This document shows, in pieces, positions 15,453 through 54,578 of a DNA stretch of 64,000 bases. Position 1 is the stretch's first letter, and each line of letters opens with the position of its first letter. The DNA comes from a phage, in the NCBI GenBank assembly GCA_014816185.1, contig GCA_014816185.1_4095.1; one strand, 5' to 3'. The notes under the pieces are model-generated. The model was not told the DNA's origin and ran no database searches. It worked only from the letters and a program-made list of their open reading frames with translations. The position numbers were made by a program, and so were the translations under genes.

Positions 15453-15536
15453 ATGACTTTAGAGATTGTCTTTGGTATTGTTAGCTTAGTCGTCTGTGTG
15501 GGTTGGTTTGGGTATCTGATGATTTTTAGTGATTAA
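15453..15536 (+). CDS. 27-aa hydrophobic micro-protein
   Basis: AAGGA SD 7 nt upstream; MTLEIVFGIVSLVVCVGWFGYLMIFSD; below the ORF-track cutoff. Confidence 0.3.
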   Translation: MTLEIVFGIVSLVVCVGWFGYLMIFSD

Positions 15537-17207: not shown

Positions 17208-17422
17208 TGACTACCAATGAAATGATGCAGGTTATTTGGGATAAAGGTTGTGATATTAAAATCACTAGTACTGATGTTCGTGTATTCAAAACTGAATATA
17301 TGGAGTACTTGGATCTTGATACTTATAATAATATTGTATCAATCGAACACAAAGGTGCAGTACTGGAAACGATTGATGTAGTACTCAAGAAAGCTACCGA
17401 CCTATTAGGAGTGGCAGTGTGA
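17207..17422 (+). CDS. hypothetical protein
   Basis: TAATG overlap. Confidence 0.55.
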   Translation: MTTNEMMQVIWDKGCDIKITSTDVRVFKTEYMEYLDLDTYNNIVSIEHKGAVLETIDVVLKKATDLLGVAV

Positions 17423-17565
17423 ATAACAAAGAGTGGGAAGATTACCGCAAGAAGTGCCGAGAGTTTGATAAAGAACTCACAGGTGCAGTGAACGGGGTAA
17501 TGTGGGTATCTGCAATTATTGCAGTACTTGGTTTGGGTGCTATTATTATTAATAAATTATTGTAA
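17419..17565 (+). CDS. 48-aa protein with C-terminal TM segment
   Basis: GTG start overlapping upstream stop, AGGAG SD; below ORF-track cutoff. Confidence 0.35.
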   Translation: MNNKEWEDYRKKCREFDKELTGAVNGVMWVSAIIAVLGLGAIIINKLL

Positions 17566-22754: not shown

Positions 22755-23048
22755 ATGATCAGTACTTCAGTTAATGAAAGCATCGTCGCTGACGTAGAAA
22801 TGGTTAAAGAATGTGCAGATGAAACTCTTCGTGATATGTACATTAATGATTTAATTACTGAATACGGTAGTCGTGGTGTACACGAATTTATTCGTTTAAG
22901 TGGAGAGTTGATGAAAAATCGAATTCGTATGAAGCTTAACGTACATCCAAAAGCATGGGCATTTACATTAAAATACGCAGAAGATATTGTGAATTTGCGT
23001 CGAACTGAAGTATATGAACGTTTGCACAATGGTATGTTAGATAAATGA
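22755..23048 (+). CDS. hypothetical protein
   Basis: SD AAGG. Confidence 0.55.
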   Translation: MISTSVNESIVADVEMVKECADETLRDMYINDLITEYGSRGVHEFIRLSGELMKNRIRMKLNVHPKAWAFTLKYAEDIVNLRRTEVYERLHNGMLDK

Positions 23049-23056
23049 TTGTAAAA

Positions 23057-23088
23057 AAGGAATTCTTAAATGAATTCCTTTTTGTTTA
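23057..23088 (+). terminator. rho-independent terminator
   Basis: AAGGAATTC-TTAAAT-GAATTCCTT plus TTTTGTTT. Confidence 0.55.
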
Positions 23089-23100
23089 TAAGGTATAGTA

Positions 23101-23322
23101 ATGAAATATATAGTACTTGTACTGATATTATTCAGTACTGTTGTAAGTGCTAAACAAAAAGAATATGTTAAATGTATAAATTATGAAGAGAAATATGTTG
23201 AAACATATAAAAAAAGTATAATTAAAAACGTTTCGATTACTAACAGAGCAACAATCATTGTACTTAAAAATGGGTTAATTATGCTATATAAACCACACGT
23301 TAAATGTGAAATTATTAATTGA
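23101..23322 (+). CDS. small secreted protein
   Basis: Signal peptide MKYIVLVLILFSTVVSA. Confidence 0.55.
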   Translation: MKYIVLVLILFSTVVSAKQKEYVKCINYEEKYVETYKKSIIKNVSITNRATIIVLKNGLIMLYKPHVKCEIIN

Positions 23323-23329
23323 GGAAATT

Positions 23330-23902
23330 ATGAATCGTAAAGGTCGTTTTAAAGTATCAAAAAAGAACAAAAGTTCTAGGTTTAAACCTATTGTTTTAAC
23401 AGTTAAATCTAACAAAGAATTAACTGCACTTAGTAAAAAGATAATTTCATCTAAGATTGAAGTATCATACGTAAATTCATTAAAATATATGAATGTCAAA
23501 CCACTGGACCAACTCATTTCACTTATATTTGAACGTAATGATTTTGAGATATCAGTAGATGATTATAGAGCCTATAATGCTGGTTTCATTAATGTTACTT
23601 GTAATAAAAAACTAACTGAGTTGGAAAATTTGTCATGTATAATAAATCTAGATAAAGGTGTTGTGAAGTACCATTTTGTACATTTCACTAATATCAATAA
23701 TGGAATGGGTGTACAATCCAGACCTATAGTGCCTACGTGTGATGTTACTAAATTAGCAAAGCTCAATGATGAAGAATATTTTCAAGAAAGCATTGTAACT
23801 GAGCATTTAGATGATATAATAGCTACTTACAAAGAATGCATATGGGTGTTGAATGCTATAAAACCTAAATTGTGTTTAATGAATATTGTTCGTGATTTAT
23901 GA
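23330..23902 (+). CDS. hypothetical protein
   Basis: Start moved to ATG after GAGGAA (MNRKGRFK). Confidence 0.55.
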   Translation: MNRKGRFKVSKKNKSSRFKPIVLTVKSNKELTALSKKIISSKIEVSYVNSLKYMNVKPLDQLISLIFERNDFEISVDDYRAYNAGFINVTCNKKLTELENLSCIINLDKGVVKYHFVHFTNINNGMGVQSRPIVPTCDVTKLAKLNDEEYFQESIVTEHLDDIIATYKECIWVLNAIKPKLCLMNIVRDL

Positions 23903-23915
23903 ATGGGGAATCGTA

Positions 23916-24359
23916 ATGAGTTGGGTAAATGTTAATAGTATTGAACTTAACGAACAAGATATTTTTGCATTTGTAAATTTAACTAATAACACAGTACTAA
24001 AAGGGCGTTTGTTCAGTGCTAGTGATGGGTACAAATGGATCTCTTTGATGGATGATAGTGGTGTGATTTATAATGTAATGCAATTACCCCAATGGGTATA
24101 TAGTAACACTGCTGACGATGTTCTTACCGCAGTTATGCGTGAGTTTGAAAAACTCCCAGGTGGTGATATCAAAAACAAAGTTTTTAATGCAGAACGTAAA
24201 AATTATACAGCACAGCAGTTGGAATCCCTTGCCATTGCTGCTTATCAAGCTGCTATTAAGAAGCCAGAGTGCGTTATTCTTAAGTATGTACCAGACTTAA
24301 AACTTACGTTGGAAGACATGGATGCATTCATTTTTACATCTGAACTTGATCAGTACTAA
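23916..24359 (+). CDS. hypothetical protein
   Basis: Start moved to internal ATG (MSWVNV). Confidence 0.5.
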   Translation: MSWVNVNSIELNEQDIFAFVNLTNNTVLKGRLFSASDGYKWISLMDDSGVIYNVMQLPQWVYSNTADDVLTAVMREFEKLPGGDIKNKVFNAERKNYTAQQLESLAIAAYQAAIKKPECVILKYVPDLKLTLEDMDAFIFTSELDQY

Positions 24360-24474
24360 TTTAACTTTGGGACAACCATTCTTATTATGATATAATGTTT
24401 TATGTCATTCGATATAAATGACAACGGAACTATAAATATTATAGTAAAATTTATCTCTTATAGGAGTTATAAAA

Positions 24475-24858
24475 ATGGTTGATAAATGGAATAAGAAAGA
24501 TCCATCACATGATGTTGATATTTCTGGTCTAGACAATGCACATAAGCACAAGTATCTAGATTCACTAGGTCTTCTAAAACCAGACCAAAGTCTTGCACAT
24601 GATCGTCCATCCCGTGAAAAAGCATTTAGCCTAGAATCACTAGGTCATGAGCTTAATCGTGTGTTTGAGGATCACCCAATCTATGTACGTGATATTATCG
24701 AGAAACTTAAAGTAACTCCTAAAGAGCACTTTAAAGCAACTGTACACTCTGCATTCCGTGCATTACATGAATCTCTAAAGAAAACTCACAATCTTCGTAA
24801 AATTCATGATGAAATCGTGAATGCAATCGAAAGTGAAAAACATAAGTTCAAGAAGTAA
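24475..24858 (+). CDS. hypothetical protein
   Basis: SD AGGAG. Confidence 0.6.
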   Translation: MVDKWNKKDPSHDVDISGLDNAHKHKYLDSLGLLKPDQSLAHDRPSREKAFSLESLGHELNRVFEDHPIYVRDIIEKLKVTPKEHFKATVHSAFRALHESLKKTHNLRKIHDEIVNAIESEKHKFKK

Positions 24859-24864
24859 TAAAAA

Positions 24865-24890
24865 GGGGTTGACTAAGGTCAGCCCTTTGT
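24865..24890 (+). terminator. terminator, variant of the TTGACT hairpin family
   Basis: GGGGTTGAC-TAAG-GTCAGCCC then TTTGTTG. Confidence 0.55.
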
Positions 24891-24927
24891 TGTATCATAA
24901 ATTCTCAATATAACTGAGGTATCATAT

Positions 24928-25041
24928 ATGCAAGGTTTGAAATTTGTAGTTGCTGCACTCATCGCCGCAGTACTGGTTGGTGGTGTATTCTATGTAGTGG
25001 ATCAAAAAGTAAATCCACCTGCACAAGAACAATCTAAGTAA
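24928..25041 (+). CDS. 37-aa single-TM micro-protein
   Basis: GAGG SD; sits alone between two terminators; MQGLKFVVAALIAAVLVGGVFYVV... Confidence 0.35.
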   Translation: MQGLKFVVAALIAAVLVGGVFYVVDQKVNPPAQEQSK

Positions 25042-25048
25042 CAAAATA

Positions 25049-25076
25049 AGGTTGACTTCGGTCAGCCTTTTCTTTA
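25049..25076 (+). terminator. UUCG-tetraloop terminator
   Basis: GGTTGAC-TTCG-GTCAGCC plus T-run. Confidence 0.6.
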
Positions 25077-25103
25077 TACTATAAATATAGACATAGAGAA
25101 AAA

Positions 25104-26381
25104 ATGAAATCTATGGAGAGAAATCAAATGCCAAGTAATTTTACTGATAAAAATGGTGGTAACATGGCTGGTCACTCTGATAAATGGAGTGAACGCAACC
25201 GCCGTCCAAATAGTTATCAAGCAGGTCAAGGTTCACGTGGATCACGTAACCAAGGAACTGGTCTAGCTGGTAAAGCAAACGCAGAAGCAGGTGAAGTTAA
25301 GAGTACTGAGAACATGACTGAGCTAGAAAAGCTACGTTATGTTAATTCATTGGGACTTCTTAATGCTACACAAAAACAACGCCTAGCTGATATGGAACGT
25401 GAAGAAAAAGAAAAATCTGCTCCTGCTAAAGAAGAACCAAAACAAGAAGCACCAAAGGCGGTTAACCCTGTCAAAGAACTGTCGGATAAGTTAGGTAAGA
25501 TTTTTGCTAATAAACCACAACTTATCCAAGGTATTGTGAAAGAATTGCAATCTGTACCTAAAGAAGAATTAAAAGTCAAAGCACAAGCTGTGCTTGATGC
25601 AATGAGTGGAAATACCAGTACTGAACCAACTGAAGTATTCAGTACTATAATGCGTGCACTTGAAGGTACGCAACAAGGTGATGTGCCTGCACAAGAGGAA
25701 GTAAGTCTTGAAAGCGTACTTAAAACATTTGATAGTATTGGTAAAGAAGACCGTGCTAATGCTCAAAAAGTTAAGAATGTACTAGCTAAGTTAGAAAACC
25801 GTCTGGAAGGTAAAGACGATAAGATTAAATTAGTATCTGATGCAGTTAACGATGCACTTAAATCTTATGTACAAGGTGAAAAGAGTCGTTTTGTAACTGC
25901 AATGGATGCTGCATTCAATACTATGAAAAAGTATGAAGCTGATCATGGTGAGAAGGTTACACGAGATGGTTATCTGATGCGTGATGATGAAGAAGGTGCA
26001 GTAGAACAGAACGATGTTCATTCAGACGAAGAAATTGATGACATGGAAGCTGAACTGTCACAAGACCGCCAAATGACTGAAAAATCCCATAACGAACTAC
26101 AGAAATTAATGCAATGGGTTGCAGATGTTGGTGAAAAAGCTGGTGCTGATAAGAAGAGTATAAACCGAAATCTTAGTTGGATTAAAGATAAAGTTGGTAA
26201 CAACGCTCGTAAACTACAAAAAGCGTGGACTGATGTAGTGAATGGTGCTGTTGATATTGATGTTGAATCCGGTGAGGCATATGATTATGCATTGACTACA
26301 CTTGATGACTCTTTCCGTGATTACGAAAATGGAAATGTAACTCCTTGGGAAAAGGACATCATGAGCAAATACGGTAAATGA
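25104..26381 (+). CDS. hypothetical acidic protein (425 aa)
   Basis: Long ORF, highly charged, coiled-coil-like. Confidence 0.6.
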   Translation: MKSMERNQMPSNFTDKNGGNMAGHSDKWSERNRRPNSYQAGQGSRGSRNQGTGLAGKANAEAGEVKSTENMTELEKLRYVNSLGLLNATQKQRLADMEREEKEKSAPAKEEPKQEAPKAVNPVKELSDKLGKIFANKPQLIQGIVKELQSVPKEELKVKAQAVLDAMSGNTSTEPTEVFSTIMRALEGTQQGDVPAQEEVSLESVLKTFDSIGKEDRANAQKVKNVLAKLENRLEGKDDKIKLVSDAVNDALKSYVQGEKSRFVTAMDAAFNTMKKYEADHGEKVTRDGYLMRDDEEGAVEQNDVHSDEEIDDMEAELSQDRQMTEKSHNELQKLMQWVADVGEKAGADKKSINRNLSWIKDKVGNNARKLQKAWTDVVNGAVDIDVESGEAYDYALTTLDDSFRDYENGNVTPWEKDIMSKYGK

Positions 26382-26388
26382 TAAAACA

Positions 26389-26417
26389 AAAGGTTGACTT
26401 CGGTCAGCCTTTTTTTG
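26389..26417 (+). terminator. UUCG-tetraloop terminator
   Basis: AAAGGTTGAC-TTCG-GTCAGCCTTT plus TTTTT. Confidence 0.65.
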
Positions 26418-26452
26418 TAAATACAAAAGAGGAATTAAGAAGAGGGATTACA

Positions 26453-26704
26453 ATGAAAAAATATATTATATTTGGAATTGTATTATTTTCCAGTACTGCT
26501 TATGGTGCAGATTATCATTGCTCCGTAGCAAGGCAGGATTTCAGAAATGGGGAGTTCTATACTACCTCATACACAAAAGGAATAATACACGACACCGACA
26601 GAACTATTGGATTTAATGCGTTTGACAACAAAGATTCATATACTTCAGGTATACTATCTGAGCGTAAGACTGATGTAATGGGAATAGAAAAAGAGTTCCG
26701 GTGA
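26453..26704 (+). CDS. small secreted protein
   Basis: Start moved to ATG after AGAGGG; signal peptide MKKYIIFGIVLFSSTAYG. Confidence 0.5.
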   Translation: MKKYIIFGIVLFSSTAYGADYHCSVARQDFRNGEFYTTSYTKGIIHDTDRTIGFNAFDNKDSYTSGILSERKTDVMGIEKEFR

Positions 26705-26714
26705 TTCAGTAGCA

Positions 26715-27038
26715 ATGTGCAATGGCATTGAAAGTACTAAAACAATTTATTATAATAATGAACGTAACTATCGTTTTCATAATTTAACCACAAATAAAAG
26801 TTTACTATTTTACAATTGTAAAGAAGTAATACTCCCATCAGACAATAGCTGTACTCCAACTAATCAACCCCCAGCACAATGTAATACTCCCTCTGAACCT
26901 GATAAAAATAAAAAAGACAAAGATAAAGATAAAAAAGAAGACAAAAAACCTTTAAAAGATAAAAAGAAAGATAAAAAACCTAATCCGTTTAAAAATAATA
27001 AACAAGCACAACCCGATATGACGTGTAAAATAAAATAA
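26715..27038 (+). CDS. Lys/Asp-rich low-complexity protein
   Basis: ORF with KKDKDKDKKEDKK tract; weak SD. Confidence 0.35.
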   Translation: MCNGIESTKTIYYNNERNYRFHNLTTNKSLLFYNCKEVILPSDNSCTPTNQPPAQCNTPSEPDKNKKDKDKDKKEDKKPLKDKKKDKKPNPFKNNKQAQPDMTCKIK

Positions 27039-39527: not shown

Positions 39528-40697
39528 CTAAGCAGAAGGCATATCCTTCATCTTAATAAATGAAAATTGTGTACCAGTATTTGTGGTTTGATCAGTAAAA
39601 TATGAATTACTACCAGCCCAGTACAATTCATTATTAACTATACAATATATAACAGAACTCGAACTCTGTGAATACACACGACTTATATTTGATGGTTCTA
39701 CTCCAGTACTGAACTGAACCGAACCCAACTGTGAACTTGGTATCACATCAGTTGGTCTACCTAAACCATTAACACCAGCCCCACCACCACATGTATATAT
39801 CCCAGTACTATCAGTTGATATATTAACATAACCATTTCCAGCATTTTCAAATAGTATTTCACTGGGAACAACACCAAATCCTGTAAGATCTATTTTCCTG
39901 AATGTAGTATAAACCGTAGAACCGCCAACACCTCTTCCACCATAATCATTAGAACCAGCCATATAGATACTATATCCAGAACTTCCTAAACATAATAACT
40001 GTACGTTGTCATATAATATTTGCATAGATATAACGTTATCAGGAATACTCAATACCGTAAAAGTAGTTAAAGAAGAACTTCCAATATTACTACCAACCGA
40101 TGTTCCACATCTGTAGTACTTACCGCCCTTTATATAATGGAATGATGAACCACCTAATTTATGTGCTCCTATTGCACTTACCTCAGTATCTATGAGAATG
40201 GGAGATACAACTTTGTTATTAACACCTAACTCAGATCTACTGTTCATACCGAACCCATATAAACGACCATCTAACATCAATATTAGTGTACTACCGGAAG
40301 TACCCGCTGACGTAAATTCTATATTCTTTATTTGCGACACGTCAATACCTACAAATAATGAAGTTACTTCAGTCCAGTTAACATATGAACCACTAGCCCC
40401 AAAATATCCACCCATGTATAGACCTGCACAATATAATTTATTATCAACAGTCTTTATTAATGTACCGGATACACACGCCCAAAAATCATCAACTTCATAG
40501 GGTACATGTACCCAACCACCTAATACATCACTAGCATCCCCTGTACCTAATTTATAGTTCGAACCAGAACCACGCATGTACATATTCCCTGTACTATAAA
40601 GTAATCCGACATGTAATTGACTACCATCCAATTTCTTTATTTCAGGAAGAGTTGGTTTAATATTTCCGTACTTTAACATTCTTCCAAAAGGTAACAT
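39528..40697 (-). CDS. RCC1-like repeat protein, MLPF family
   Basis: Start set at conserved MLPFGRM (track ORF reads through the upstream cassette); AAGGAGG SD; GxNxxGQLG-type motifs. Confidence 0.7.
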   Translation of the reverse strand: MLPFGRMLKYGNIKPTLPEIKKLDGSQLHVGLLYSTGNMYMRGSGSNYKLGTGDASDVLGGWVHVPYEVDDFWACVSGTLIKTVDNKLYCAGLYMGGYFGASGSYVNWTEVTSLFVGIDVSQIKNIEFTSAGTSGSTLILMLDGRLYGFGMNSRSELGVNNKVVSPILIDTEVSAIGAHKLGGSSFHYIKGGKYYRCGTSVGSNIGSSSLTTFTVLSIPDNVISMQILYDNVQLLCLGSSGYSIYMAGSNDYGGRGVGGSTVYTTFRKIDLTGFGVVPSEILFENAGNGYVNISTDSTGIYTCGGGAGVNGLGRPTDVIPSSQLGSVQFSTGVEPSNISRVYSQSSSSVIYCIVNNELYWAGSNSYFTDQTTNTGTQFSFIKMKDMPSA

Positions 40698-40775
40698 AAT
40701 TCCTCCTTTATTCATTATACTATATTTAATACAAATAAGAAAGCCAGTACAAAGTACTGGCATAGTTTTATAGTA

Positions 40776-41885
40776 TTATTTCGGCATTGTAATTGCAGAC
40801 CATGAGTTCGTGGTAATAGGACCTGGTACATACAAAAAAGAACCACAAGCATAAATTTGATTATTACCATCAAATACTATACTAAAATGTGCACATGTGT
40901 ATAATGATGATTTTTCTGGGTTGTAATTATCTAAAGTTAGTGTATTGGTGAATCTACTCAAACCACCTCCCGAACCATTTCTACCAAATTCACCAGTACT
41001 GTATATCTTTCCTTCGGTTGTTGCGTACATATTAACATATGAAGTCGCACTTGATTTTGATATTTTATGTATCTTACTATCAATAGTAGTGGAGTTAAAT
41101 GCAAATGGATATACTTGTGTGTTCGTTGTAATACCGTTACCAAGTTGACCAATATACTGCCAACCTGCGTTGTATATATTGCTGGCTGAATAAGCAAGAG
41201 TACCAGTACTGTTACCACCAAATAGTTTAACACTTGTTAACCTGCTTACTAGTGTAGTATACTGTCCTGGACTTACGCCAAGTGAACCATACCCACTGCT
41301 CCCGCAACCGAGAAGTTCATTATTTGATGTTAATATTAATGTGTTATTCTGTGTACCCAATATATCAAGAACTGTATTAGCTCCGGTATTAATAACTGAA
41401 ACAAAAGTACTCTGAGCCGTGGAATACCCACCACCGAGTGAATAGTTACCATTCATGCCTCTACCATAAACAATCGAACCACTAGCATCAACGTAGTGCA
41501 TTGTATCTGCACCAATTGATATCATTTTAATATTAGATATATGTGGAAATGAAGAAGTAACATTCAAACCACCCAACGGAATCATAGTATTTCCTGTGCC
41601 TAATTGTGTGGTAACTCCATGCATTATGAATTCTTCACCCTTGAGATAAAGAATATTGTACGCCCCAGCCCATGCATCAGTAACACCTTCTGAAATTAAT
41701 ATCCAAGTATTTCTTGTTGCTGTATTTTCAACGTTTAACTGAAAATACGTATTAACCCCACAACCATAAAGTGAGCCATCACCATAGAGGACGTACAAAT
41801 TATCAAGACCGCACAGTACTTTCTTTATCTTTGGAGCTTCAGGTGCAATATTTCCGTACTTAATCATTCTAACAAAAGGTAACAT
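40776..41885 (-). CDS. RCC1-like repeat protein, MLPF family
   Basis: Start at MLPFVRM; motifs GVNTYFQLN and GWQYIGQLGNG. Confidence 0.7.
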   Translation of the reverse strand: MLPFVRMIKYGNIAPEAPKIKKVLCGLDNLYVLYGDGSLYGCGVNTYFQLNVENTATRNTWILISEGVTDAWAGAYNILYLKGEEFIMHGVTTQLGTGNTMIPLGGLNVTSSFPHISNIKMISIGADTMHYVDASGSIVYGRGMNGNYSLGGGYSTAQSTFVSVINTGANTVLDILGTQNNTLILTSNNELLGCGSSGYGSLGVSPGQYTTLVSRLTSVKLFGGNSTGTLAYSASNIYNAGWQYIGQLGNGITTNTQVYPFAFNSTTIDSKIHKISKSSATSYVNMYATTEGKIYSTGEFGRNGSGGGLSRFTNTLTLDNYNPEKSSLYTCAHFSIVFDGNNQIYACGSFLYVPGPITTNSWSAITMPK

Positions 41886-41956
41886 ATTTCCCTCCTTATT
41901 CATTATACTATATTTAATACAAATAAGAAAGCCAGTATCAAGTACTGGCCTATATT
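41886..41956 (-). promoter_or_regulatory. conserved terminator-promoter-SD cassette (representative)
   Basis: Minus-strand sense GCCAGTACTTGATACTGGC hairpin + TTTCTTATTTG, then ATATAGTATAATGAATAAGGAGGGAA + ATG; near-identical copies in 40698-40775, 42695-42765, 43909-43980, 45145-45216, 46405-46475, 47625-47695, 48836-48905, 51227-51297, degenerate at 39456-39527. Confidence 0.65.
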
Positions 41957-42694
41957 TTAGACTGAATTGTTAGGATAATATCTCCCACGTCCCCATATTA
42001 TTCGCACAGCACCACCACCAGCAGCCGTATAAGAAAAATTATCCCATATACTACCACCACCACCATACATCTTACCAGCACCACCACTACCAGCACCACC
42101 ATTATATGAACCATCGTATCTACCGCCAATACCATTAGCACCTTGAACAATGATACCAGTACCACCACCCGTACCAATGAACGAGGTATTATAGAATGCA
42201 CCACCACCACCGCCGCCCCCAGCACCATTTTCACCAGTGATTGCATCTCCGTTACCACCTTTACCAGTGTAGCCACCAGCACCACCACCAATGACTGCAC
42301 CACCACTTACACCAGCGTTGCCCCCATTACCACCACCATCATTAATAGCGTTAGCAGCTTTCCCACCTAGTCCACCAACCCTATATTCACCAGTGAAGCT
42401 AACACATAGTTTTTCAGTTCCACGATATAAACCGTTTTCAACTGGTGTAGTAGTGTTGGGATGTGTAAGAGAAACACTTAAGTACTCACCACTAGTAACC
42501 GGAATATTATTACGCCACGATAAGCCGCCACCAGCACCACGTTGACCACCCGGCGAAATAACACATACTGATATTTCGGTAACGCCAGCAGGAACTGTAA
42601 ATTGTGTTGTTCCTATTGTCGTGATTAATTGTTCACCATGTGGCTTATATTCAATTTTATTCCCGTACTTAACCATTCTTCCAAAAGGTAACAT
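41957..42694 (-). CDS. Gly-rich protein with MLPF N-terminus
   Basis: N-terminus MLPFGRMVKYGN; body is Gly-rich low complexity rather than RCC1 repeats. Confidence 0.65.
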   Translation of the reverse strand: MLPFGRMVKYGNKIEYKPHGEQLITTIGTTQFTVPAGVTEISVCVISPGGQRGAGGGLSWRNNIPVTSGEYLSVSLTHPNTTTPVENGLYRGTEKLCVSFTGEYRVGGLGGKAANAINDGGGNGGNAGVSGGAVIGGGAGGYTGKGGNGDAITGENGAGGGGGGGAFYNTSFIGTGGGTGIIVQGANGIGGRYDGSYNGGAGSGGAGKMYGGGGSIWDNFSYTAAGGGAVRIIWGRGRYYPNNSV

Positions 42695-42765
42695 AATTCC
42701 CCTCCTTATTCATTATACTATATTTAATACAAATAAGAAAGCCAGTATCAAGTACTGGCGTAATG

Positions 42766-43908
42766 TCAATAAGTATCCCAAGGTAATGGTGTCTTCCTAA
42801 ATCCATACCTGGTTGTGCTCGCACCATCACCAGCAATGTATCTACCTATACCACATTGGTATAACTCTGTACTACTACATATAGCACCACCTATAGTACC
42901 ACTACTCCACTGAATTATATTAGAATATGTTATTGGTAAATCACTACATTTAGTATATACAGCAACGGTAGAAGCACCACTAATACCACCAAACATACTT
43001 CGGTTAGCACCAGTGTAATATATACCATCTGGACTCATAAATGCAGAGGTGTAAGTTGTACTGCAATCCACTGGACTTCTTATTGTATTAAGATCGCCTG
43101 GGTATGTCCTGACACCAAAGGTGTATACATTACCATCAGTTGTAATACCATTACCTAACTGCCCACTGCTTTGTCCACCACATGTAAGCAACAATGCAGA
43201 ACCAGAAACAATTGCAGTAGCATTATACGAAGTACCCATTGCAATAGAAGCACCAGACAATAGTTTTGGTGTAACGATAGCTGTTGTATTACCCTGGCCT
43301 AATTCACCATTTGTGTTTCGTCCCCATGCGTATATAGAAGTTGTATCCAAGCGACATAGTACTGAACCATAACTAAACGTATATCGCATGTCATTTACAG
43401 CAGAAGGCAAATTAACCTTAGTTGCAACACTAATAACACCGCCAGTAACACCACTGTTTGCGTTCATGTTACGACCATATGCATATAAAGAACCATCTGA
43501 AGTTTTAATATGCATCATACCATCTGTGCAATATAATGCATCGATGCTATCCACCGCAACCGGACCCATACTGGCAGTTATATCGGTCCACCCAAGAGTA
43601 GTAGTACTAGAAATTAAGTTATTTCCTGCATATAGTATTCTATTATTATTAGTAACTACCACTGTATATCTAGCAGTAACTCCAATTAATCGAACATCAG
43701 TATATATCTTAGACCACGCACCTAGTGAATTTGTATTTGCATCCAAAAAGCCTAACTGCCCATCTGTATTGTATCCAATACCCCATGCATCACCTGCACT
43801 GTCCAATAACACTTCATGTGAAAAGCCAATCTTAAAATCTTTTATTGTAGGAACTACTGGAACTGGTGCTATATTCCCGTACTTAACCATTCTTGCAAAA
43901 GGTAACAT
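42766..43908 (-). CDS. RCC1-like repeat protein, MLPF family
   Basis: GYNTDGQLGF, GRNTNGELGQG, GGQSSGQLGNG. Confidence 0.75.
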   Translation of the reverse strand: MLPFARMVKYGNIAPVPVVPTIKDFKIGFSHEVLLDSAGDAWGIGYNTDGQLGFLDANTNSLGAWSKIYTDVRLIGVTARYTVVVTNNNRILYAGNNLISSTTTLGWTDITASMGPVAVDSIDALYCTDGMMHIKTSDGSLYAYGRNMNANSGVTGGVISVATKVNLPSAVNDMRYTFSYGSVLCRLDTTSIYAWGRNTNGELGQGNTTAIVTPKLLSGASIAMGTSYNATAIVSGSALLLTCGGQSSGQLGNGITTDGNVYTFGVRTYPGDLNTIRSPVDCSTTYTSAFMSPDGIYYTGANRSMFGGISGASTVAVYTKCSDLPITYSNIIQWSSGTIGGAICSSTELYQCGIGRYIAGDGASTTRYGFRKTPLPWDTY

Positions 43909-43980
43909 AATTCCCCTCCTTATTCATTATACTATATTTAATACAAATAAGAAAGCCAGTATCAAGTACTGGCATTCTTT

Positions 43981-45144
43981 TTAAAATGGTGAATCTATTA
44001 CAAATACTAAGCTATTAATACCACCATATGTGACATCAGCCCCAGTACTATATACAAAATTACCATCAGTTATATAAGTACGGTTATACCCACCTGACAT
44101 TTGTGATTTACTATAATCAAAACCATCAGGTACGATTGCTTTGGTATATACTAATGCGTTAGTAGATGTACCAACACCTAACATACCAGCTTGTGTTGAT
44201 TGGTTGTAGCCACAACAATATATACCATCTGTTGTAGCAATAACTTGGTTATAATATGAAGTATTATGGGCCATACTGAGTACATCACCTGGTGGCATTA
44301 GGGAAGCAGTTTGAACAGCAAATGCTCTTATATCAGTACTATTCACTCCATCTGCCTGTGCACCAAATCTTTTCGCCCCACCATTGGCAATTATGGTTTT
44401 TCCATTTGGATCAGTACCAATAGCCATCGCCATTGAATTGTTATTATTTACATAGTACTCGATATTAATTACACTCCTTAGACTCGTAGGAGCACTAGTG
44501 TATACTGTATATAGAGAAGTACCACTAGTGCTAATTGCATTGACACGGCCTGTATAGTATAACCAACCGTTAGCAGTAACATAACCATGCATTAGATTAC
44601 TTGCAAACAATTTAAATGGTAATTGGTCTTCTTCAGTAGAGACTGTGCTCTGGACGAATTTAGTATTAACGTTGTTAGTTGTTGTCCCATTACCTAACTG
44701 ACCTTCTGCCCCTGCCCCAGTACTCCATATTGTTCGATCTGAAAGTAATACACTTGTAGTCTGATTACTAACTGCCATATCTAATATTGGTAATGTTAAT
44801 GTATTGAATGTTGGCATAGCAGAAGTCCACACTGATACGGCTGCCCCTGTCATACCAACAGTAGTTGACGAACCACTGTACCATATTTCATTGTTGAATT
44901 TCTTAATAACCAAAGAAGTGGTACTTAACCAAAAATCTTCAACACCAGAAGTACTTAACGTCCATGTAGTAACGGTTTCTTTGTGACCTAAACCCAAAAG
45001 ACCATTTGAATTCTGACCACGTACATATAAATCCCCACTGCTTGTTAAAACTGCAACGTTGTAGTTATTGGCGAGTATTTTTTTAAATTTCGGTGGTGCT
45101 GGTGCTATATTCCCGTACTTAACCATTCTTGCAAAAGGTAACAT
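43981..45144 (-). CDS. RCC1-like repeat protein, MLPF family
   Basis: GQNSNGLLGLG, GAGAEGQLGNG; C-terminus LVFVIDSPF. Confidence 0.75.
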   Translation of the reverse strand: MLPFARMVKYGNIAPAPPKFKKILANNYNVAVLTSSGDLYVRGQNSNGLLGLGHKETVTTWTLSTSGVEDFWLSTTSLVIKKFNNEIWYSGSSTTVGMTGAAVSVWTSAMPTFNTLTLPILDMAVSNQTTSVLLSDRTIWSTGAGAEGQLGNGTTTNNVNTKFVQSTVSTEEDQLPFKLFASNLMHGYVTANGWLYYTGRVNAISTSGTSLYTVYTSAPTSLRSVINIEYYVNNNNSMAMAIGTDPNGKTIIANGGAKRFGAQADGVNSTDIRAFAVQTASLMPPGDVLSMAHNTSYYNQVIATTDGIYCCGYNQSTQAGMLGVGTSTNALVYTKAIVPDGFDYSKSQMSGGYNRTYITDGNFVYSTGADVTYGGINSLVFVIDSPF

Positions 45145-45216
45145 AATTCCCTCCTTTATTCATTATACTATATTTAATACAAAAAGAAAAGCCAGTACTG
45201 AGTACTGGCTATTATA

Positions 45217-46404
45217 TTATAATTGTCGGGGTGTATCTAGTACATATCTAGTTGTACTAGGACCACCATCATCATAAGTTCCGGTTGAATATATATTTTT
45301 CATATCAGTTAGAAATGTACGATATGAACCTCTATATATTTTTATTTTATCATACATAGAATATGTTATTTGTGTAGGCATTGGACATGCAGTAAACTTA
45401 CCAACAGTTGCACTAGTACCAATACCCAATGAACCAGCATAACTACTGGCATTTAAACCAGTTGCATATACACCAGTACTCGTAATTAGTATACTAGATT
45501 GTGGTGGGTATCCAGTATGAATTGAATACAAAGTACCGGGTGGTAACGTAGTACTGTTATTTCCTAAAACTCCATTAACAGAGCTAGATGTAGTGTTATT
45601 TCCCCATGCCCCATTATTAGCTAACCCACCGACAAGGAACTGACGTGCTCCTGTATTTGGATTTTCAACTAAAGCACTTACTGCACCAGTTGAGCATCCT
45701 GTGTATTGTAACGTTTTTGTGTATGTTGTACTTGGTTGATATAAAGTATATTCATTATATGAAGTCCATGTAGTCGCGGAACTTATACCGGATGTAACAC
45801 CACCAATATATAAATTATTTTGTTTATCAAACATCAATACACAGTTATTTGTTGACTGTATTTGTGCAATATCAACATTAGGTGTGACCGCTTTTACAAA
45901 TGAACCATCGGTTATTTCATAAGTAGTTCCCGTTCCATCGGCGAATTGTCTAGCACTGTTCCACCCTGTACTCCATATTGTATTATTATCCATTAATACC
46001 GTAAACCACGTAGTACCTCCATACATCTGTTTAATTGAAGTACTTGAACTTTGTGTGTACAAATTTTCAATATATTGGTTATAACTTAAAAACGTAGTAG
46101 TACTTGTTGGTAAACCAATATGAGAACCATATCCACAATAAAAATAATTTAAGTCATTGTCTTTTACTAATAAAGTTCCTTGTGTAAGCCAGCAATCGTT
46201 AACGTTTTCTCTAATTAATGTCCATGATTTTAATGCAGTGTTGTTTCCTCTACCGAATTTCCCAAAACTATTATTCCCACGTGCATATAGTTGACCATCC
46301 GTATACAGAACCACAACATCTAAATCAGTTGGGATTATTTTCTTAATTTGAAGTGGTACTGGGGCAATATTCCCATAATTCATCATTCTTGCAAAAGGTA
46401 ACAT
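45217..46404 (-). CDS. RCC1-like repeat protein, MLPF family
   Basis: N-terminus MLPFARMMNYGNIAP; repeat-rich Gly/Asn/Thr composition. Confidence 0.7.
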   Translation of the reverse strand: MLPFARMMNYGNIAPVPLQIKKIIPTDLDVVVLYTDGQLYARGNNSFGKFGRGNNTALKSWTLIRENVNDCWLTQGTLLVKDNDLNYFYCGYGSHIGLPTSTTTFLSYNQYIENLYTQSSSTSIKQMYGGTTWFTVLMDNNTIWSTGWNSARQFADGTGTTYEITDGSFVKAVTPNVDIAQIQSTNNCVLMFDKQNNLYIGGVTSGISSATTWTSYNEYTLYQPSTTYTKTLQYTGCSTGAVSALVENPNTGARQFLVGGLANNGAWGNNTTSSSVNGVLGNNSTTLPPGTLYSIHTGYPPQSSILITSTGVYATGLNASSYAGSLGIGTSATVGKFTACPMPTQITYSMYDKIKIYRGSYRTFLTDMKNIYSTGTYDDGGPSTTRYVLDTPRQL

Positions 46405-46475
46405 AAATTCCTCCTTTATTCATTATACTATATTTAATACAAATAAGAAAGCCAGTATCAAGTACTGGCATTAAA

Positions 46476-47624
46476 TCATTGTATAAATGACATATCAACT
46501 TCTGTATAACTAAGAATGTTTTGTCCAGCAATTCCCCCCATTACTACCATAGCATACCCACAATAATATAATTGCTCAGTGTCCGTAAGTATAAGTGAAC
46601 CAGATGGAGTGCGTACCAAATTACACGAACTATTAAACGAAGTATACGAAGGAGTATATGAGTACTGATTAATATTATTACCAACACCTAATTGACCAAA
46701 TCCATTCGACCCAGATGCGTATAGAACTTCATCACCTTTAGCTATATGTGATGCCATGTTACTAACACACGTATATAGAGTATAAACTCCTGAACTCAAT
46801 AATGTCGGAGTTTTGTATTGTATATCGGTAGATGAAGAAGTACCACCTGTGCCAAATTCGTTCCCGTATTGTGCACCGAACTGTTTACCACAAGCGTACA
46901 AATTATTATCCGATTTAATAAAAAATGTACTTTGATAACTTACATCAAAATCTATAACATCCGAAGCAATCATCGTCACCCCAGTAATAGAAGTTTGATT
47001 ACCTGTACCTAACTGATAGTAATAGTTAAAACCACAACCCCATAAAGTATTATCTTCTTTTAGGTATATGTTACCAACTGCCTTTTTAACCGAAGTTATA
47101 GTATCTACCCTTTTGAATGTGTTAAAAGAATTAATGTTTGTACCATCACCAAATGATGATAGGTTCGAGTTATTGTTAACTCCACAACAATACAACGTAC
47201 CATCGTTTGTTATCAAATTCACCTTCATATCATTAAAACTACTCATGTATTTTATATCAGAAACATTAATACCACCTGATGTTATCCACGTAGTACAGTC
47301 CGTCCACAAAGTTTTTGTATCAGTTACACCAGTGAATGCCTTCGTGTTACCAGTGATAAAAACTTTTCCAGTACCTTTCTCTTCATACAATTGACAACTA
47401 CTACTGTTATCTTCCAATAGAACTCGTTTAACATTCTCCGCACAAAGAATAAATTTACTCGATGCTACACCTGTACCAGTACCCCAATTCGTCGCAGAAG
47501 ATGCATACAACTTATTAGTATAAGTATCATGAAGATACATAGAATCACTTGAATATATTTTAAAACGCCTATCCTTACCAGGGGCAATATTCCCATAATT
47601 CATCATTCTTACAAAAGGTAACAT
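46476..47624 (-). CDS. RCC1-like repeat protein, MLPF family
   Basis: GFNYYYQLGTG, GSNGFGQLGVG. Confidence 0.75.
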   Translation of the reverse strand: MLPFVRMMNYGNIAPGKDRRFKIYSSDSMYLHDTYTNKLYASSATNWGTGTGVASSKFILCAENVKRVLLEDNSSSCQLYEEKGTGKVFITGNTKAFTGVTDTKTLWTDCTTWITSGGINVSDIKYMSSFNDMKVNLITNDGTLYCCGVNNNSNLSSFGDGTNINSFNTFKRVDTITSVKKAVGNIYLKEDNTLWGCGFNYYYQLGTGNQTSITGVTMIASDVIDFDVSYQSTFFIKSDNNLYACGKQFGAQYGNEFGTGGTSSSTDIQYKTPTLLSSGVYTLYTCVSNMASHIAKGDEVLYASGSNGFGQLGVGNNINQYSYTPSYTSFNSSCNLVRTPSGSLILTDTEQLYYCGYAMVVMGGIAGQNILSYTEVDMSFIQ

Positions 47625-47695
47625 ATTTCCCTCCTTTATTCATTATACTATATTTAATACAAATAAGAAAGCCAGTACAGTGTACTGGCATTATA

Positions 47696-48835
47696 TTATT
47701 TCCACGGTAGAAGTGAATCAGGAACCCTTGTTGGTACAGTAGTTGAAGACATTCCAGTAAGATTGGGTACACCACATGTGTATAAATTATTATATTCGTC
47801 AACTAACATCGTATAAGAATAGCTCTTACAAAAACTACTAAGATTACTACCTTCTAATGCAGTAAGATCCATTTCAGCGAATGATGTTATATACATATCA
47901 GTTGTACCAATACCACATTGACCATTTGAATTAAGGCCACATGAAAATAACTTATTATTATTATTAATTATACAGGATGGTCCGGTAAGGTTTGTCCCAA
48001 GCTCACCCACCAACTCCACTTCTCCTTGGAATGATAAATTTGGAATTAATGTACTCATTGGGGCTACTGACCTATTTCCTGTACCTGCTTGTCCATAGTC
48101 GTTAATAGATGCAACTTTAACATTACCATCATTAAGAAATATATAAGAAGTTTCATTTGTATTGACTGCTTTAATTGCATTACTAATCGAAGTATCTTGT
48201 GTAAATGTGAGCAAGTTTTGTGTCGTCGTTCCTGATACAAACGTTCTACCTGCATACCAATATGAACCATCATTTAGTACTAATCCAGTACTATATATTG
48301 CACAACCAGCACTGATAACATTTTCTATTGTACTATAGGTGAATCGTGAAACGCTTGAAGTTGATCCATTCCCAAAAACACCACCAGTACCAGCACCACA
48401 GTAGAACCACTTTCCATTTTTTAAAAATACACGCATACACGAAGATATCACAACACTATCAATATCATCTGCACTGACACCGAAATCAGTAAAGTTCTGT
48501 GTTATATCAACCCAAACGCCGTTAGTGTTTGAAGATAGTATTGGAATAACAGTACGTCTACCAGTGTACCAAATAGTACCATCTTTCTTTATAGCAATTG
48601 TTCCTTGTACCCCACCCCAATATCGTGTAACATTTGAGTTGACAAGAGTCCATTCAGTTGAAGAGTCCAATGAACCATTACCACTTTGTCCATATGCTGA
48701 AGAACCAAACCAATATAGATTGCCATTTGTGTGTAAATAAAATTTGGCATCAGCAGAACATTGTAACCTGTTTTTAGGTAGAATCAGTTCAGGTGCGATA
48801 TTCCCGTACTTAACCATTCTTGCAAAAGGTAACAT
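47696..48835 (-). CDS. RCC1-like repeat protein, MLPF family
   Basis: Start set at MLPFARM (track ORF extends into cassette); GLNSNGQCGIG. Confidence 0.7.
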   Translation of the reverse strand: MLPFARMVKYGNIAPELILPKNRLQCSADAKFYLHTNGNLYWFGSSAYGQSGNGSLDSSTEWTLVNSNVTRYWGGVQGTIAIKKDGTIWYTGRRTVIPILSSNTNGVWVDITQNFTDFGVSADDIDSVVISSCMRVFLKNGKWFYCGAGTGGVFGNGSTSSVSRFTYSTIENVISAGCAIYSTGLVLNDGSYWYAGRTFVSGTTTQNLLTFTQDTSISNAIKAVNTNETSYIFLNDGNVKVASINDYGQAGTGNRSVAPMSTLIPNLSFQGEVELVGELGTNLTGPSCIINNNNKLFSCGLNSNGQCGIGTTDMYITSFAEMDLTALEGSNLSSFCKSYSYTMLVDEYNNLYTCGVPNLTGMSSTTVPTRVPDSLLPWK

Positions 48836-48905
48836 ATTCCCTCCTTTATTTGTTATACTATATTTAATACAAATAAGAAAGCCAGTACTCTGTACTGGCA
48901 TTATG

Positions 48906-50015
48906 TTATTTTGGTAAATCAATTTTAGTAAAGACTGCAACATCCTCGATTGCACCTGGAATGGCGTAATACGATCCAGTACTATACACATCTCCATTTT
49001 TGGTTAATATCGATGTCAAACCATCACTAAAAAGAACATCCCTAATCTCACTAACTTCAACGGGTAATTGTAAATTGGTAGCACTATATATAGCACCAGT
49101 TTGAGAATTGTTTAATCCCAAACCACGGTTCGCCCCAACACCCTTCTGATATGTACTAGTAATTACCATTTGTGTAGCAGTATTTAAGGCAGGTGAATTC
49201 GTCATAAACAACGGAGAACTATTAGGCAAAGTACTTAAAGGAACTGCACGGAATGTAGTCGTACCTGAACTAAGAAAGTTTGGAGTTTGACCACATACGA
49301 AATATGATGTACCATTATAGTAATTTAATGCATTACCACCAATGGCTGCATCGATTACACCAGAACTACGCAATCCCCAAGTGTTAATTTGTGTTTGGTT
49401 CCCCGTACCATGCTGCCCACTACTATTCCATCCAGAACTATATAGCTTATTATCTAATGTAAGATACATACTATCATTCGCATTGGTCATTACTTTACGA
49501 ACGTTCGTAGCACATTGAGTTAATGTGTAAATTGATGATGAACCAATACCCAAAGAACCACGATATCCATTATCTCCTGCACCATAGAGTACTGAATTAG
49601 TGCTAAGTACAAATATTAAACCATTTGTACATACAATATTAGCAATTTCACTTACTGGTATAGCATTGGTAAACCAATTAGTTCTTTCAACTAATACAGT
49701 ACTGTAAGAAGTAGTTGTAGAAGATGAGAACCAGTACGTTTGACCTGATGTCCATATCGTATTATCATTTTTAATAATAACAAGTGTACGATCACCCACG
49801 AAAAAATTAGAAACATCTGCACTTACTAATGTCCACGAAGACACCGTGTTGGTATTACCATTTCCAGATTCACCACCTTGATTTCTACCTATGTAATATA
49901 AATCATGTGAATCAGTCAATAAGAATTGGCCTTGGGTAGAAGCACCAACTTTAATTATTTTTTTAGGACCAGGGACAATATTTCCATACATAATCATTCT
50001 TCCAAAAGGTAACAT
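48906..50015 (-). CDS. RCC1-like repeat protein, MLPF family
   Basis: Start at MLPFGRM; GWNSSGQHGTG; only 8 nt from upstream gene stop, no cassette. Confidence 0.7.
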   Translation of the reverse strand: MLPFGRMIMYGNIVPGPKKIIKVGASTQGQFLLTDSHDLYYIGRNQGGESGNGNTNTVSSWTLVSADVSNFFVGDRTLVIIKNDNTIWTSGQTYWFSSSTTTSYSTVLVERTNWFTNAIPVSEIANIVCTNGLIFVLSTNSVLYGAGDNGYRGSLGIGSSSIYTLTQCATNVRKVMTNANDSMYLTLDNKLYSSGWNSSGQHGTGNQTQINTWGLRSSGVIDAAIGGNALNYYNGTSYFVCGQTPNFLSSGTTTFRAVPLSTLPNSSPLFMTNSPALNTATQMVITSTYQKGVGANRGLGLNNSQTGAIYSATNLQLPVEVSEIRDVLFSDGLTSILTKNGDVYSTGSYYAIPGAIEDVAVFTKIDLPK

Positions 50016-50023
50016 ATTCCCTC

Positions 50024-51226: not shown

Positions 51227-51297
51227 ATTTCCCTCCTTTATTCATTATACTATATTTAATACAAAAAGAAATGCCAGTATCAAGTACTGGCATAATA

Positions 51298-52579: not shown

Positions 52580-52807
52580 ATGACAACTACACTTAAGTAC
52601 TACATTAATACTCTAAATGAACTAGAGTACGCGAAGTTTCTCGCGGATAGTTCGTGGCTAATTGAGCTAAAAACACATAACAGTACTGGATGTAACCTTA
52701 TGCTGAACAATGCACTTGATACCCTTGTAGTGAGTATTTTACACAGCAACATCTGCGGGAATAGCAATAAACAATTATCAAAAATCTTAGTACTGGTAGC
52801 TCTATGA
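52580..52807 (+). CDS. small protein, array member (divergent)
   Basis: AAGGAG SD; TTGACA-N17-TACTAT promoter upstream; KYYINTLNELEY N-terminal motif. Confidence 0.55.
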   Translation: MTTTLKYYINTLNELEYAKFLADSSWLIELKTHNSTGCNLMLNNALDTLVVSILHSNICGNSNKQLSKILVLVAL

Positions 52808-53016: not shown

Positions 53017-53017
53017 T

Positions 53018-53203: not shown

Positions 53204-53214
53204 AAGAGTACTAT

Positions 53215-53609: not shown

Positions 53610-53619
53610 AGAGAATACT

Positions 53620-53802: not shown

Positions 53803-53810
53803 GGTAATAT

Positions 53811-53996: not shown

Positions 53997-54004
53997 GGTA
54001 CTCT

Positions 54005-54184: not shown

Positions 54185-54191
54185 GGTAGAC

Positions 54192-54380: not shown

Positions 54381-54388
54381 GGAATAAT

Positions 54389-54568: not shown

Positions 54569-54578
54569 AGGAAACCAA

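Follow-up and report, generated by a model that had tools for sequence, protein, structure and literature searches.

AcrZ, MgrB, CydX and KdpF are microproteins with a single transmembrane (TM) helix that bind larger membrane proteins, while Fst, TisB and Hok are type I toxins. In phage T4, superinfection exclusion involves Imm and Sp, which are small, non-essential proteins, expressed early and targeted to the inner membrane or the periplasm. The genomes of T4-like phages also contain promoter-early stem-loops (PeSLs), for which promoter, terminator and mini-circle-forming activities have been shown experimentally, and which lie on either side of ORFans that vary from one sister phage to another (PMC2839356, PMC4122927). 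ORF192 of RB49, for instance, has two flanking PeSLs and is absent from phi1 (Arbiol et al. 2010, PMC2839356; Comeau et al. 2014, PMC4122927).

Here we analysed a 37-codon micro-gene located between two virion protein genes of a jumbo phage and compared its surroundings with these systems. We consider it reasonably probable that it is a genuine accessory gene, restricted to the genus Asteriusvirus, which encodes a 37-residue single-pass inner-membrane microprotein within an autonomous cassette of the PeSL type.

The micro-gene and its neighbours

The window, meaning the whole 64-kb stretch of DNA that was analysed, is AT-rich (30-40% GC), with small genes tightly packed on the + strand. The 4-kb stretch from 23000 to 27000, which was searched, is 100% identical to Escherichia phage JP4 (PQ330092.1) and 94-99.7% identical to phAPEC6, SP27, G17, PBECO4 and 121Q. 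All six are jumbo myophages of the genus Asteriusvirus, with genomes of ~350 kb. The following features surround the micro-gene:

24431..24438, + strand: left late-promoter motif TATAAATA, T4-type, 37 nt upstream of the left virion protein gene
24475..24858, + strand: left flanking gene, encoding a 127-aa virion structural protein, homologue of 121Q gp199 and phAPEC6 gp037c (phrog_16530, E 4e-56)
24863..24888, + strand: upstream hairpin, 11-bp stem with a UAAG loop and a -35 box in its 5' arm; putative terminator of the left gene
24869..24898, + strand: predicted sigma-70-type promoter of the micro-gene, with -35 TTGACT (24869-74), an 18-nt spacer and -10 TATCAT (24893-98)
24916..24919, + strand: Shine-Dalgarno (SD) sequence GAGG, 8 nt 5' of the ATG
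24928..25041, + strand: micro-gene, ATG to TAA, 37 codons, MQGLKFVVAALIAAVLVGGVFYVVDQKVNPPAQEQSK; predicted single TM segment at residues 6-24 and a 13-residue polar C-terminal tail
25048..25069, + strand: downstream hairpin, 9-bp stem with a C(UUCG)G tetraloop, followed by UUUUCUUUAU; putative terminator of the micro-gene
25052..25087, + strand: predicted promoter region of the right gene, TTGACT-N17-TATACT (-35-like and, at 25075-80, -10-like), overlapping TATAAATA at 25080-87
25128..26381, + strand: right flanking gene, encoding a virion structural protein, homologue of 121Q gp201 and phAPEC6 gp035c; alternative ATG at 25104

An earlier sequence-only reading had proposed a 37-codon ORF with its own SD at this position, and both are indeed present. 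It had also taken the ORF to be unannotated and easily missed by length cutoffs, which is wrong: the micro-gene is a known, annotated ORFan within a PeSL-like cassette. It corresponds to JP4_CDS0180, 121Q gp200 (AIT14090.1), phAPEC6 gp036c and G17_00113, and is a CDS in PBECO4, SHEFM2K, ELP-22 and further records as well. The identical 37-aa protein (100%) was found in 19 records, and gene callers predict it in 139 blocks of a public gene collection, with an unchanged genomic context in every block. It has a PHROG of its own, phrog_35037, which it matches end to end (E 2.2e-29, residues 1-37 on profile positions 1-37). The product is labelled 'hypothetical protein' in 121Q, phAPEC6, JP4 and phrog_35037, and no family in Pfam, PHROGs or NCBIfam assigned a function to it. 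CcmD_alt, Myco_arth_vir_N and Phr_nterm were discarded as sub-threshold matches to the hydrophobic segment only, and a hit to the Rfam family MicX (both strands, 23 bits where the gathering score is 75) as an artefact of one hairpin resembling another. In the literature searched we found no discussion of the micro-gene; a spanin survey that names 121Q and PBECO4 contains no link to it. A phage Tn-seq preprint covers PhiKZ only.

The two flanking genes are paralogues, as phrog_16530 matches both: the right gene, which matches phrog_20398 with an E-value of 2e-179, also matches phrog_16530 (E 6e-38). Both products have been detected in purified phAPEC6 virions by ESI-MS/MS, gp037c with 5 peptides (48% coverage) and gp035c with 8 peptides (28.8% coverage). 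The micro-protein, gp036c, is absent from this virion proteome, which is weak evidence, as small hydrophobic proteins are often missed.

Repeated hairpins and putative promoters

Neither hairpin was matched in stability by any of 200 shuffled sequences, the upstream one reaching -18.0 kcal/mol (z -5.7) and the downstream one -12.4 kcal/mol (z -5.1). T-rich tails follow both, the U-tract of the upstream hairpin being interrupted (UUUGUUGU). The downstream hairpin was picked up by a terminator scan, and in the G17 record both carry a terminator annotation (the upstream one by ARNold). The micro-gene had been described in the sequence-only reading as flanked on both sides by UUCG-tetraloop terminators. 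This holds in part: a strong hairpin stands on each side and the downstream loop is C(UUCG)G, but the upstream loop is UAAG. The hairpins are stable, as expected of terminators, but appear not to be merely terminators, since each carries a -35 TTGACT with a -10-like box 17-18 nt downstream.

The hairpin core GGTTGACnnnnGTCAGCC (GGTTGAC-NNNN-GTCAGCC) is found in 8 copies in the window, all on the + strand, versus 0.01 expected, and both hairpins of the micro-gene belong to this repeat. The copies span 21.6-34.7 kb, where the genes are small and hypothetical apart from a T7-type kinase and homing endonucleases. Alignment of all 8 yielded the consensus AAAAGGGTTGACTTCGGTCAGCCCTTTTTGCTATAAT, then ATTTCATCAAC, then AGAGG and finally ATG; read as a promoter, it takes the form TTGACT...TGCTATAAT, followed by AGAGG and the ATG. 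The -35 TTGACT lies in the 5' arm of the stem and the -10 box follows 17-18 nt later, with a perfect TATAAT in half of the copies (4/8) and often an extended TG. With the -35 inside the stem and the -10 and SD behind it, the same ~60-nt module would act both as the terminator of the upstream gene and as the sigma-70 promoter and SD of the downstream gene. Judged by this architecture, the repeats are predicted to combine terminator and promoter in one element, as PeSLs do in T4-like phages. A limited search of the Asteriusvirus and RaK2-like literature returned no description of such elements.

The predicted promoter of the micro-gene agrees with the consensus at 10 of 12 positions and is conserved in all JP4-type genomes examined. 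Its -10, TATCAT, is a 5/6 match, so the strength of the promoter in JP4 is uncertain. In the divergent allele carried by fEgEco12 and related phages (see below) the promoter reads TTGACT-N18-TATAAT, with a perfect -10 at the same spacing. The sequence-only reading had called the micro-gene self-contained, and this applies more strongly than was claimed, as the upstream hairpin brings a predicted promoter as well. The papers describing JP4, fEgEco12 and phAPEC6 yielded no promoter, terminator or expression data.

A different motif precedes the virion genes. TATAAATA, which is the T4 late-promoter consensus, occurs twice in the 64 kb versus 13.6 +/- 3.7 expected, and the two copies, at 24431 and 25080, stand in front of the left and the right virion gene. 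For RaK2-like phages, the proposed late motif is ATAAATA/TATAAATA (PMC5259590). UE-S1, fEgEco12, JNE01, Turkey5 and Klebsiella phage K64-1 all retain the combination of hairpin and TATAAATA before the right gene. Since each virion gene lies behind this motif, the micro-gene would be an early-type cassette wedged between two late genes, and the hairpins may insulate it and the two virion genes transcriptionally from one another. The related jumbo phage PA5oct is transcribed by the host RNA polymerase, with TTGAC/TATAATA promoters at mapped transcription start sites (PMC7318152). By analogy, these data support early transcription of the micro-gene by the host polymerase.

Coding evidence and variation of the locus

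Phages of the fEgEco12/WPEC/vB_Ec-M-J clade carry a syntenic ORF of equal length, MQGTKFIIAALIAAVVVGTVCYSIDTYINTPSVEQTK, with 22 of 37 residues identical (59%) and a match to phrog_35037 (E 3e-14). Between the two alleles, 43 of 111 nt are different but only 15 of 37 residues, and the nucleotide differences are distributed over the three codon positions as 14/7/22, an excess at the third position (p = 0.012). We counted 18.5 synonymous differences over 26.8 synonymous sites and 24.5 nonsynonymous differences over 84.2 nonsynonymous sites, which gives a dN/dS of ~0.2. When 20,000 random derivatives with 43 substitutions were simulated, none had 15 or fewer amino acid changes, and 0.5% kept both an open frame and TM-grade hydrophobicity. 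The antisense open frame, 48 codons long in JP4, is reduced to 20 in the other allele; conservation between the alleles is limited to the reading frame of the micro-gene. Of the leader, TGAGGTAT, which contains the SD, is kept in both allele groups and the remainder diverges. That the protein hardly varies among JP4/121Q-clade phages is little evidence on its own. In each clade the variants are few and mostly nonsynonymous singletons in the C-terminal tail (~5 nonsynonymous to 1 synonymous), so that recent constraint is not demonstrable. The comparison between clades nevertheless shows that the 37-codon ORF is a real gene under purifying selection, in agreement with the claim of a real, separately punctuated micro-gene in the sequence-only reading.

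The gene is predicted to encode a single-pass membrane protein, as had also been proposed. The 19-residue Kyte-Doolittle mean (KD19) of the hydrophobic core, residues 6-24, is 2.75 in JP4 versus 2.52 in fEgEco12; the exchanges between alleles in this segment are among V, I and L, and one hydrophobic segment is retained. Hydrophobicity was rejected as evidence for coding: 13 of 154 short ATG-initiated ORFs on the mostly non-coding minus strand also reach a KD19 of at least 2.0, so that a TM-like segment alone is weak evidence. Residues A10, L11, I12, A13, A14, V15, V17 and G18 are invariant between the alleles, and A10, A14 and G18 form a small-xxx-small face of the helix, which suggests helix-helix packing. 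The tail residues D25, N29, P31, E34 and Q35 are invariant too. With a net charge of the tail of 0 in JP4 and -1 in the other allele the topology is ambiguous, and the charge pattern slightly favours an N-in/C-out orientation.

The interval between the two virion genes, to which we refer as the slot, differs widely among relatives:

JP4, 121Q, G17 and others: micro-gene alone; 269 nt, two hairpins
UE-S1: empty; 89 nt, one hairpin
ph0011: empty, judged by an alignment coverage similar to that of UE-S1
fEgEco12, vB_Ec-M-J, WPEC3/5, BF17 and others: divergent micro-gene, 87-aa polytopic membrane protein and 98-aa signal-peptide protein
EC.P1: the three genes of the fEgEco12 type and an HNH/NUMOD4 endonuclease
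UB: 257-aa zinc-finger/T5orf172-like, endonuclease-like protein
JNE01: 101-aa signal-peptide protein and a 28-aa TM ORF
Turkey5: TM ORFs of 25 aa and 28 aa
Klebsiella phage K64-1 (another genus): 100-aa signal-peptide protein between two hairpins

At least six configurations can be distinguished, with a hairpin as the left boundary in all of them and as the right boundary in most. UE-S1, ph0011, UB, JNE01 and Turkey5 lack the micro-gene and keep both structural genes. Between clades, the DNA of the micro-gene is 62% identical versus 86-88% for the flanking genes, which points to replacement of the cassette and not to vertical divergence. Taken together, the configurations indicate a cassette that is dispensable and exchangeable, its alternative cargoes being mostly small proteins with predicted membrane or periplasmic locations.

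An exhaustive HMMER search of 1.84 billion representatives returned a single real relative of the micro-protein, the chimeric allele P0001, MQGLKFVVAALIAAV|VVGTVCYSIDTYINTPSVEQTK, which is 37 aa long and in frame. A second match, P0002, is a 656-aa repeat protein aligned over residues 12-33 only and was judged spurious. The chimera occurs in 19 contigs, where the 87-aa, 98-aa and HNH genes follow it. Its nucleotide alignment is of the 121Q type up to codon ~9 (...GTAGTTGCTGC) and of the fEgEco12 type thereafter, which places the crossover at about codon 9-10. Recombination thus occurs inside the ORF too, and the hybrid it gives is in frame. By the same HMMER search, the micro-gene family is restricted to the Asteriusvirus lineage.

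Two further ORFs in the window had been listed as similar, unannotated micro-ORFs:

15453..15536, + strand: second micro-ORF, 27 aa, MTLEIVFGIVSLVVCVGWFGYLMIFSD, within an unannotated gap of JP4
17419..17565, + strand: third micro-ORF, 48 aa, whose GTG start overlaps the stop upstream of it; TM segment at the C-terminal end; JP4_CDS0159

Both are small and have one hydrophobic segment, but they are homologous neither to the 37-aa ORF nor to one another. The first of them is carried by 29 Asteriusvirus records and conserved to at least 78% aa identity, with its frame, length and AAGGA SD retained (pS 0.21, pN 0.10-0.12). JP4 indeed has no annotation for it, and a single one of the 29 records does. 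A 28-aa paralogue with the common motif GWFGYLM is found in the slots of JNE01 and Turkey5. For the second of the pair the description as unannotated was mistaken, since in addition to its JP4 locus tag it has a family, phrog_38271 (E 2e-36), and its KD19 reaches 2.48 at residues 26-44.

Possible roles and comparison with known systems

A course of events compatible with these observations can be outlined. Late transcripts of the left virion gene, started at the TATAAATA promoter, would stop at the upstream hairpin, the structure of which is seen and the function of which is presumed. Given TTGACT in the 5' arm of this hairpin and TATCAT 18 nt downstream, the host sigma-70 RNA polymerase could start a transcript of ~170 nt early in infection, a timing suggested by the promoter class and by related phages. 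The GAGG at -8 would then drive translation of the 37-aa protein, its coding nature being established by selection. The transcript would end at the C(UUCG)G hairpin with its U-tract, and the TATAAATA motif behind it would serve the right virion gene. The protein would enter the host inner membrane, probably with its N-terminus inside and its C-terminus outside, and its A10/A14/G18 face may pack on another TM helix, which could be its own or belong to a membrane protein of the host or the phage. Such packing might alter a function of the envelope, for example in the exclusion of superinfecting phages or in host takeover; such packing in the host inner membrane, with outcomes of this kind, is proposed with low confidence. 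By analogy with PeSLs, the repeated hairpins would provide portable homology for recombination, which would explain why the slot holds different cargo across relatives.

A more specific version seems doubtful to us. In it, the protein is a minimal modulator whose A10-A14-G18 face docks on a particular host inner-membrane protein, such as a component for DNA entry or a membrane-bound defence sensor, and blocks superinfection or immunity; separately, the hairpin with the -35 in its stem would act as an integron-like linker by which self-expressing envelope-effector cassettes are swapped between Asteriusvirus and Alcyoneusvirus, including exchanges inside the micro-gene. One record of the phages with three genes in the slot labels the 87-aa neighbour 'immunity to superinfection'. 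This neighbour is an ORFan confined to the same nine phages, and guilt by association was rejected, the label coming from a single record and being unsupported by Pfam, PHROG and NCBIfam models. An immunity of the T4 Imm type was likewise set aside: neither the micro-protein nor the 87-aa protein had a Pfam, PHROG or NCBIfam match to the Imm family (Imm_superinfect in Pfam) at E <= 0.1-1.

The genes directly on either side of the micro-gene encode virion proteins that mass spectrometry has confirmed, and TATAAATA precedes both. This location would also suit a late accessory of the two paralogues, that is, a helper for assembly or membrane anchoring, made by read-through from the left late promoter and not from an early promoter of its own. 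The imperfect -10 of the JP4 type agrees with this, as does the interruption of the upstream U-tract, through which termination may leak. However, the upstream hairpin is the stronger of the two, five relatives keep both structural genes and no micro-gene, and in the fEgEco12 clade the micro-gene is preceded by TTGACT-N18-TATAAT, the canonical form, and is the first gene of an operon for membrane and secreted proteins; the missing signal in the phAPEC6 virion proteome is a weak point in the same direction. We regard such a late role as unlikely. We are similarly sceptical of a membrane-damaging peptide, either a type I toxin or a minimal holin/antiholin, that would depolarise or permeabilise the host membrane. 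The micro-protein is strongly hydrophobic (KD19 2.75), and the small size, N-terminal TM helix and short polar C-terminal tail are reminiscent of the type I toxins Fst, Ldr and TisB. However, no strong antisense promoter was found (of the stronger minus-strand promoter-like sites, which were the ones listed, none falls within 24079-26407), the mRNA has no unusual degree of structure (fold z -1.0), and Pfam, PHROGs and NCBIfam contain no toxin or holin family that matches. The neighbours are virion proteins and hypothetical genes, with no lysis genes annotated nearby, and the invariant Ala/Gly face resembles a helix-packing motif rather than a pore-lining amphipathic helix. The micro-gene thus shows the hallmarks of neither a type I toxin-antitoxin system nor a holin/lysis cassette, and the toxin-like role implied by the sequence-only reading finds no specific support.

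Two further explanations touch on the nature of the product itself. If the hydrophobic segment acted as an export signal, the conserved 13-residue tail could be active in the periplasm, either released or displayed. The invariant tail residues, a weak resemblance to the Phr signal region (TIGR04429, with an E-value of 0.019 that falls well short of the cut-off) and the presence of signal-peptide proteins among the other cargoes of the slot speak for such a precursor. It is very improbable, however, in view of a 19-residue core that exceeds the typical h-region of a Sec signal, the lack of an AxA-type cleavage motif on inspection of the sequence, and the sub-threshold level of the family match. 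Finally, the ORF could be non-functional, a chance frame in the spacer between two regulatory hairpins, given that TM-like short ORFs are common in the AT-rich DNA of the window, as seen on its minus strand, and that the locus is dispensable in several relatives. Against this, the length, start, stop and SD are conserved between alleles that are 38% divergent in DNA, the substitutions are concentrated at third positions, none of the random derivatives was as conservative, and even the chimeric allele is in frame. The substitution pattern appears to bring this explanation close to refutation already, and we give it almost no credence.

The preferred reading, an accessory microprotein in an autonomous PeSL-type cassette, is more useful for its context than for the gene alone, which adds another uncharacterised small membrane ORFan to those of jumbo phages and is already in databases. 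The locus provides a clean example, in two genera, of PeSL-like terminator/promoter modules beyond T4-like phages, and it would illustrate the transcriptional insulation of two late virion genes within an otherwise early region. What carries over is the composite hairpin/promoter module with the -35 in its stem, conserved in both jumbo-phage genera, together with the hypervariable slot and the natural in-frame chimera found there. The slot lends itself to searches for superinfection-exclusion or host-envelope effectors and offers a natural 'landing pad' for the engineering of therapeutic-candidate phages.

Compared with single-TM microproteins of the AcrZ, MgrB, CydX and KdpF kind and with the toxins Fst, TisB and Hok, the micro-protein has the same general build, 30-50 residues with one TM helix and a short polar tail. 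Unlike these, it lies in the context of a predicted phage early promoter and not in a chromosomal operon or a toxin-antitoxin locus; no antisense RNA signal was found, and there is no sequence relationship. The likeness to T4 Imm and Sp lies in small size, dispensability, probable early expression and a predicted membrane location, and in the fEgEco12 clade the micro-gene heads an operon with the 87-aa polytopic membrane protein and the 98-aa signal-peptide protein. Imm is twice the size of the micro-protein, and neither the latter nor its partners show any detectable homology to these families.

The closest resemblance is to PeSLs. As in these, a repeated intergenic stem-loop terminator is combined with an A-rich stretch, sigma-70 -35 and -10 boxes at N17-18, an SD and an ATG. 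The elements are clustered among small non-essential ORFans, bracket single small ORFs and are co-oriented with transcription, and they coincide with insertions, deletions and replacements between close relatives. A stable stem-loop, joined sigma-70 boxes, co-oriented repeats and boundaries at indels and replacements are thus all found at this locus. In classical PeSLs, however, the stem-loop lies upstream of the -35, whereas in JP4 the -35 is inside the 5' arm of the stem. The loop downstream of the micro-gene is a C(UUCG)G tetraloop, and some copies continue with the T4-type TATAAATA instead of, or besides, a -10. Finally, PeSLs were described in Tevenvirinae, whereas the putative elements presented here belong to an Asteriusvirus jumbo phage of ~350 kb.

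Late-promoter motifs and the virion-protein genes beside the micro-gene

The T4-type late-promoter consensus TATAAATA is strongly depleted in the window, where two copies stand against 13.6 +/- 3.7 expected. Each copy lies shortly upstream of one of the two MS-verified virion-protein genes on either side of the 37-aa membrane micro-gene, in surroundings that are otherwise early-looking.

24431-24438, TATAAATA, left-hand copy
24475-24858, left-hand virion-protein gene
25080-25087, TATAAATA, right-hand copy
25128-26381, right-hand virion-protein gene

The two virion-protein genes are paralogues, both matching phrog_16530, and their products have the motifs SLGLL... and ...VTPKEHFKA / SVPKEELKV in common. 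Among relatives, the right-hand protein ranges from 417 to 517 aa.

Small genes and their annotation

Two further small ORFs bear on the annotation of the Escherichia phage JP4 record (PQ330092.1).

15453-15536, + strand, 27-aa transmembrane ORF (MTLEIVFGIVSLVVCVGWFGYLMIFSD), not annotated in JP4
26378-26704, + strand, JP4_CDS0182, 108 aa as annotated

The 27-aa ORF is kept in 29 Asteriusvirus genomes, with amino acid identity as low as 78%, and is annotated in one of them. It is apparently translationally coupled with its upstream gene (TAAGGATACAACATG), and a perfect TTGACA-N16-TATAAT stands downstream of it. In phages JNE01 and Turkey5, a 28-aa paralogue, with GWFGYLM in common, occupies the gp199/gp201 slot, the interval of variable cargo between the two virion-protein genes. 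As for JP4_CDS0182, its annotated start looks wrong; the hairpin at 26392-26409, when translated, gives the N-terminus of the protein (...KVDFGQPFF...). The true start is likely the ATG at about 26450 (MKKYIIFGIVLFSSTAYG...), which gives an 83-aa signal-peptide protein, annotated as such in 121Q (gp202).

The offset between the window and the JP4 record is 63072 at about 15-17 kb and 63074 at about 23-27 kb, which reflects either a 2-nt indel relative to PQ330092.1 between these regions or a window that derives from a near-identical sister genome.

Tandem paralogue families

Two longer stretches of the window consist of tandem paralogues.

39528-52476, - strand, about ten paralogues of 375-433 aa matching phrog_4219
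52804-57382, + strand, about 20 paralogues in direct succession, 59-78 aa each

For the three paralogues of the first stretch that were tested, matches to phrog_4219, 'regulator of chromosome condensation' (RCC1-like), had E values of 7e-49 to 9e-102. Candidate orthologues are the several 'DNA condensation proteins' of ~40 kDa in the phAPEC6 virion proteome. The second stretch is a large tandem family of small genes of unknown function, whose proteins fall into BLASTP clusters of 14 and 6 and carry an N-terminal (K)EYY..KL and a C-terminal VL.LI motif. One 219-aa gene, which matches phrog_29152 (function unknown), breaks up the array.

Hairpin/promoter elements, endonucleases and other genera

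At 33254-34685, two copies of the hairpin/promoter element, a GGTTGAC-loop-GTCAGCC repeat with the -35 in its 5' arm, enclose a unit that holds an annotated homing endonuclease.

33541-34659, JP4_CDS0203, homing endonuclease (ORF list)

HNH and T5orf172-like endonuclease genes are also present in the gp199/gp201 slot of EC.P1, UB and chimeric contigs. The hairpin/promoter module is also kept in further genera of RaK2-like jumbo phages.

1117-1560 of the Klebsiella phage K64-1 sequence (L040), module
1883-1930 of the Salmonella phage Munch sequence (L041), module

In K64-1, the module stands ahead of TATAAATA and a gp201 homologue, as it does in the window.
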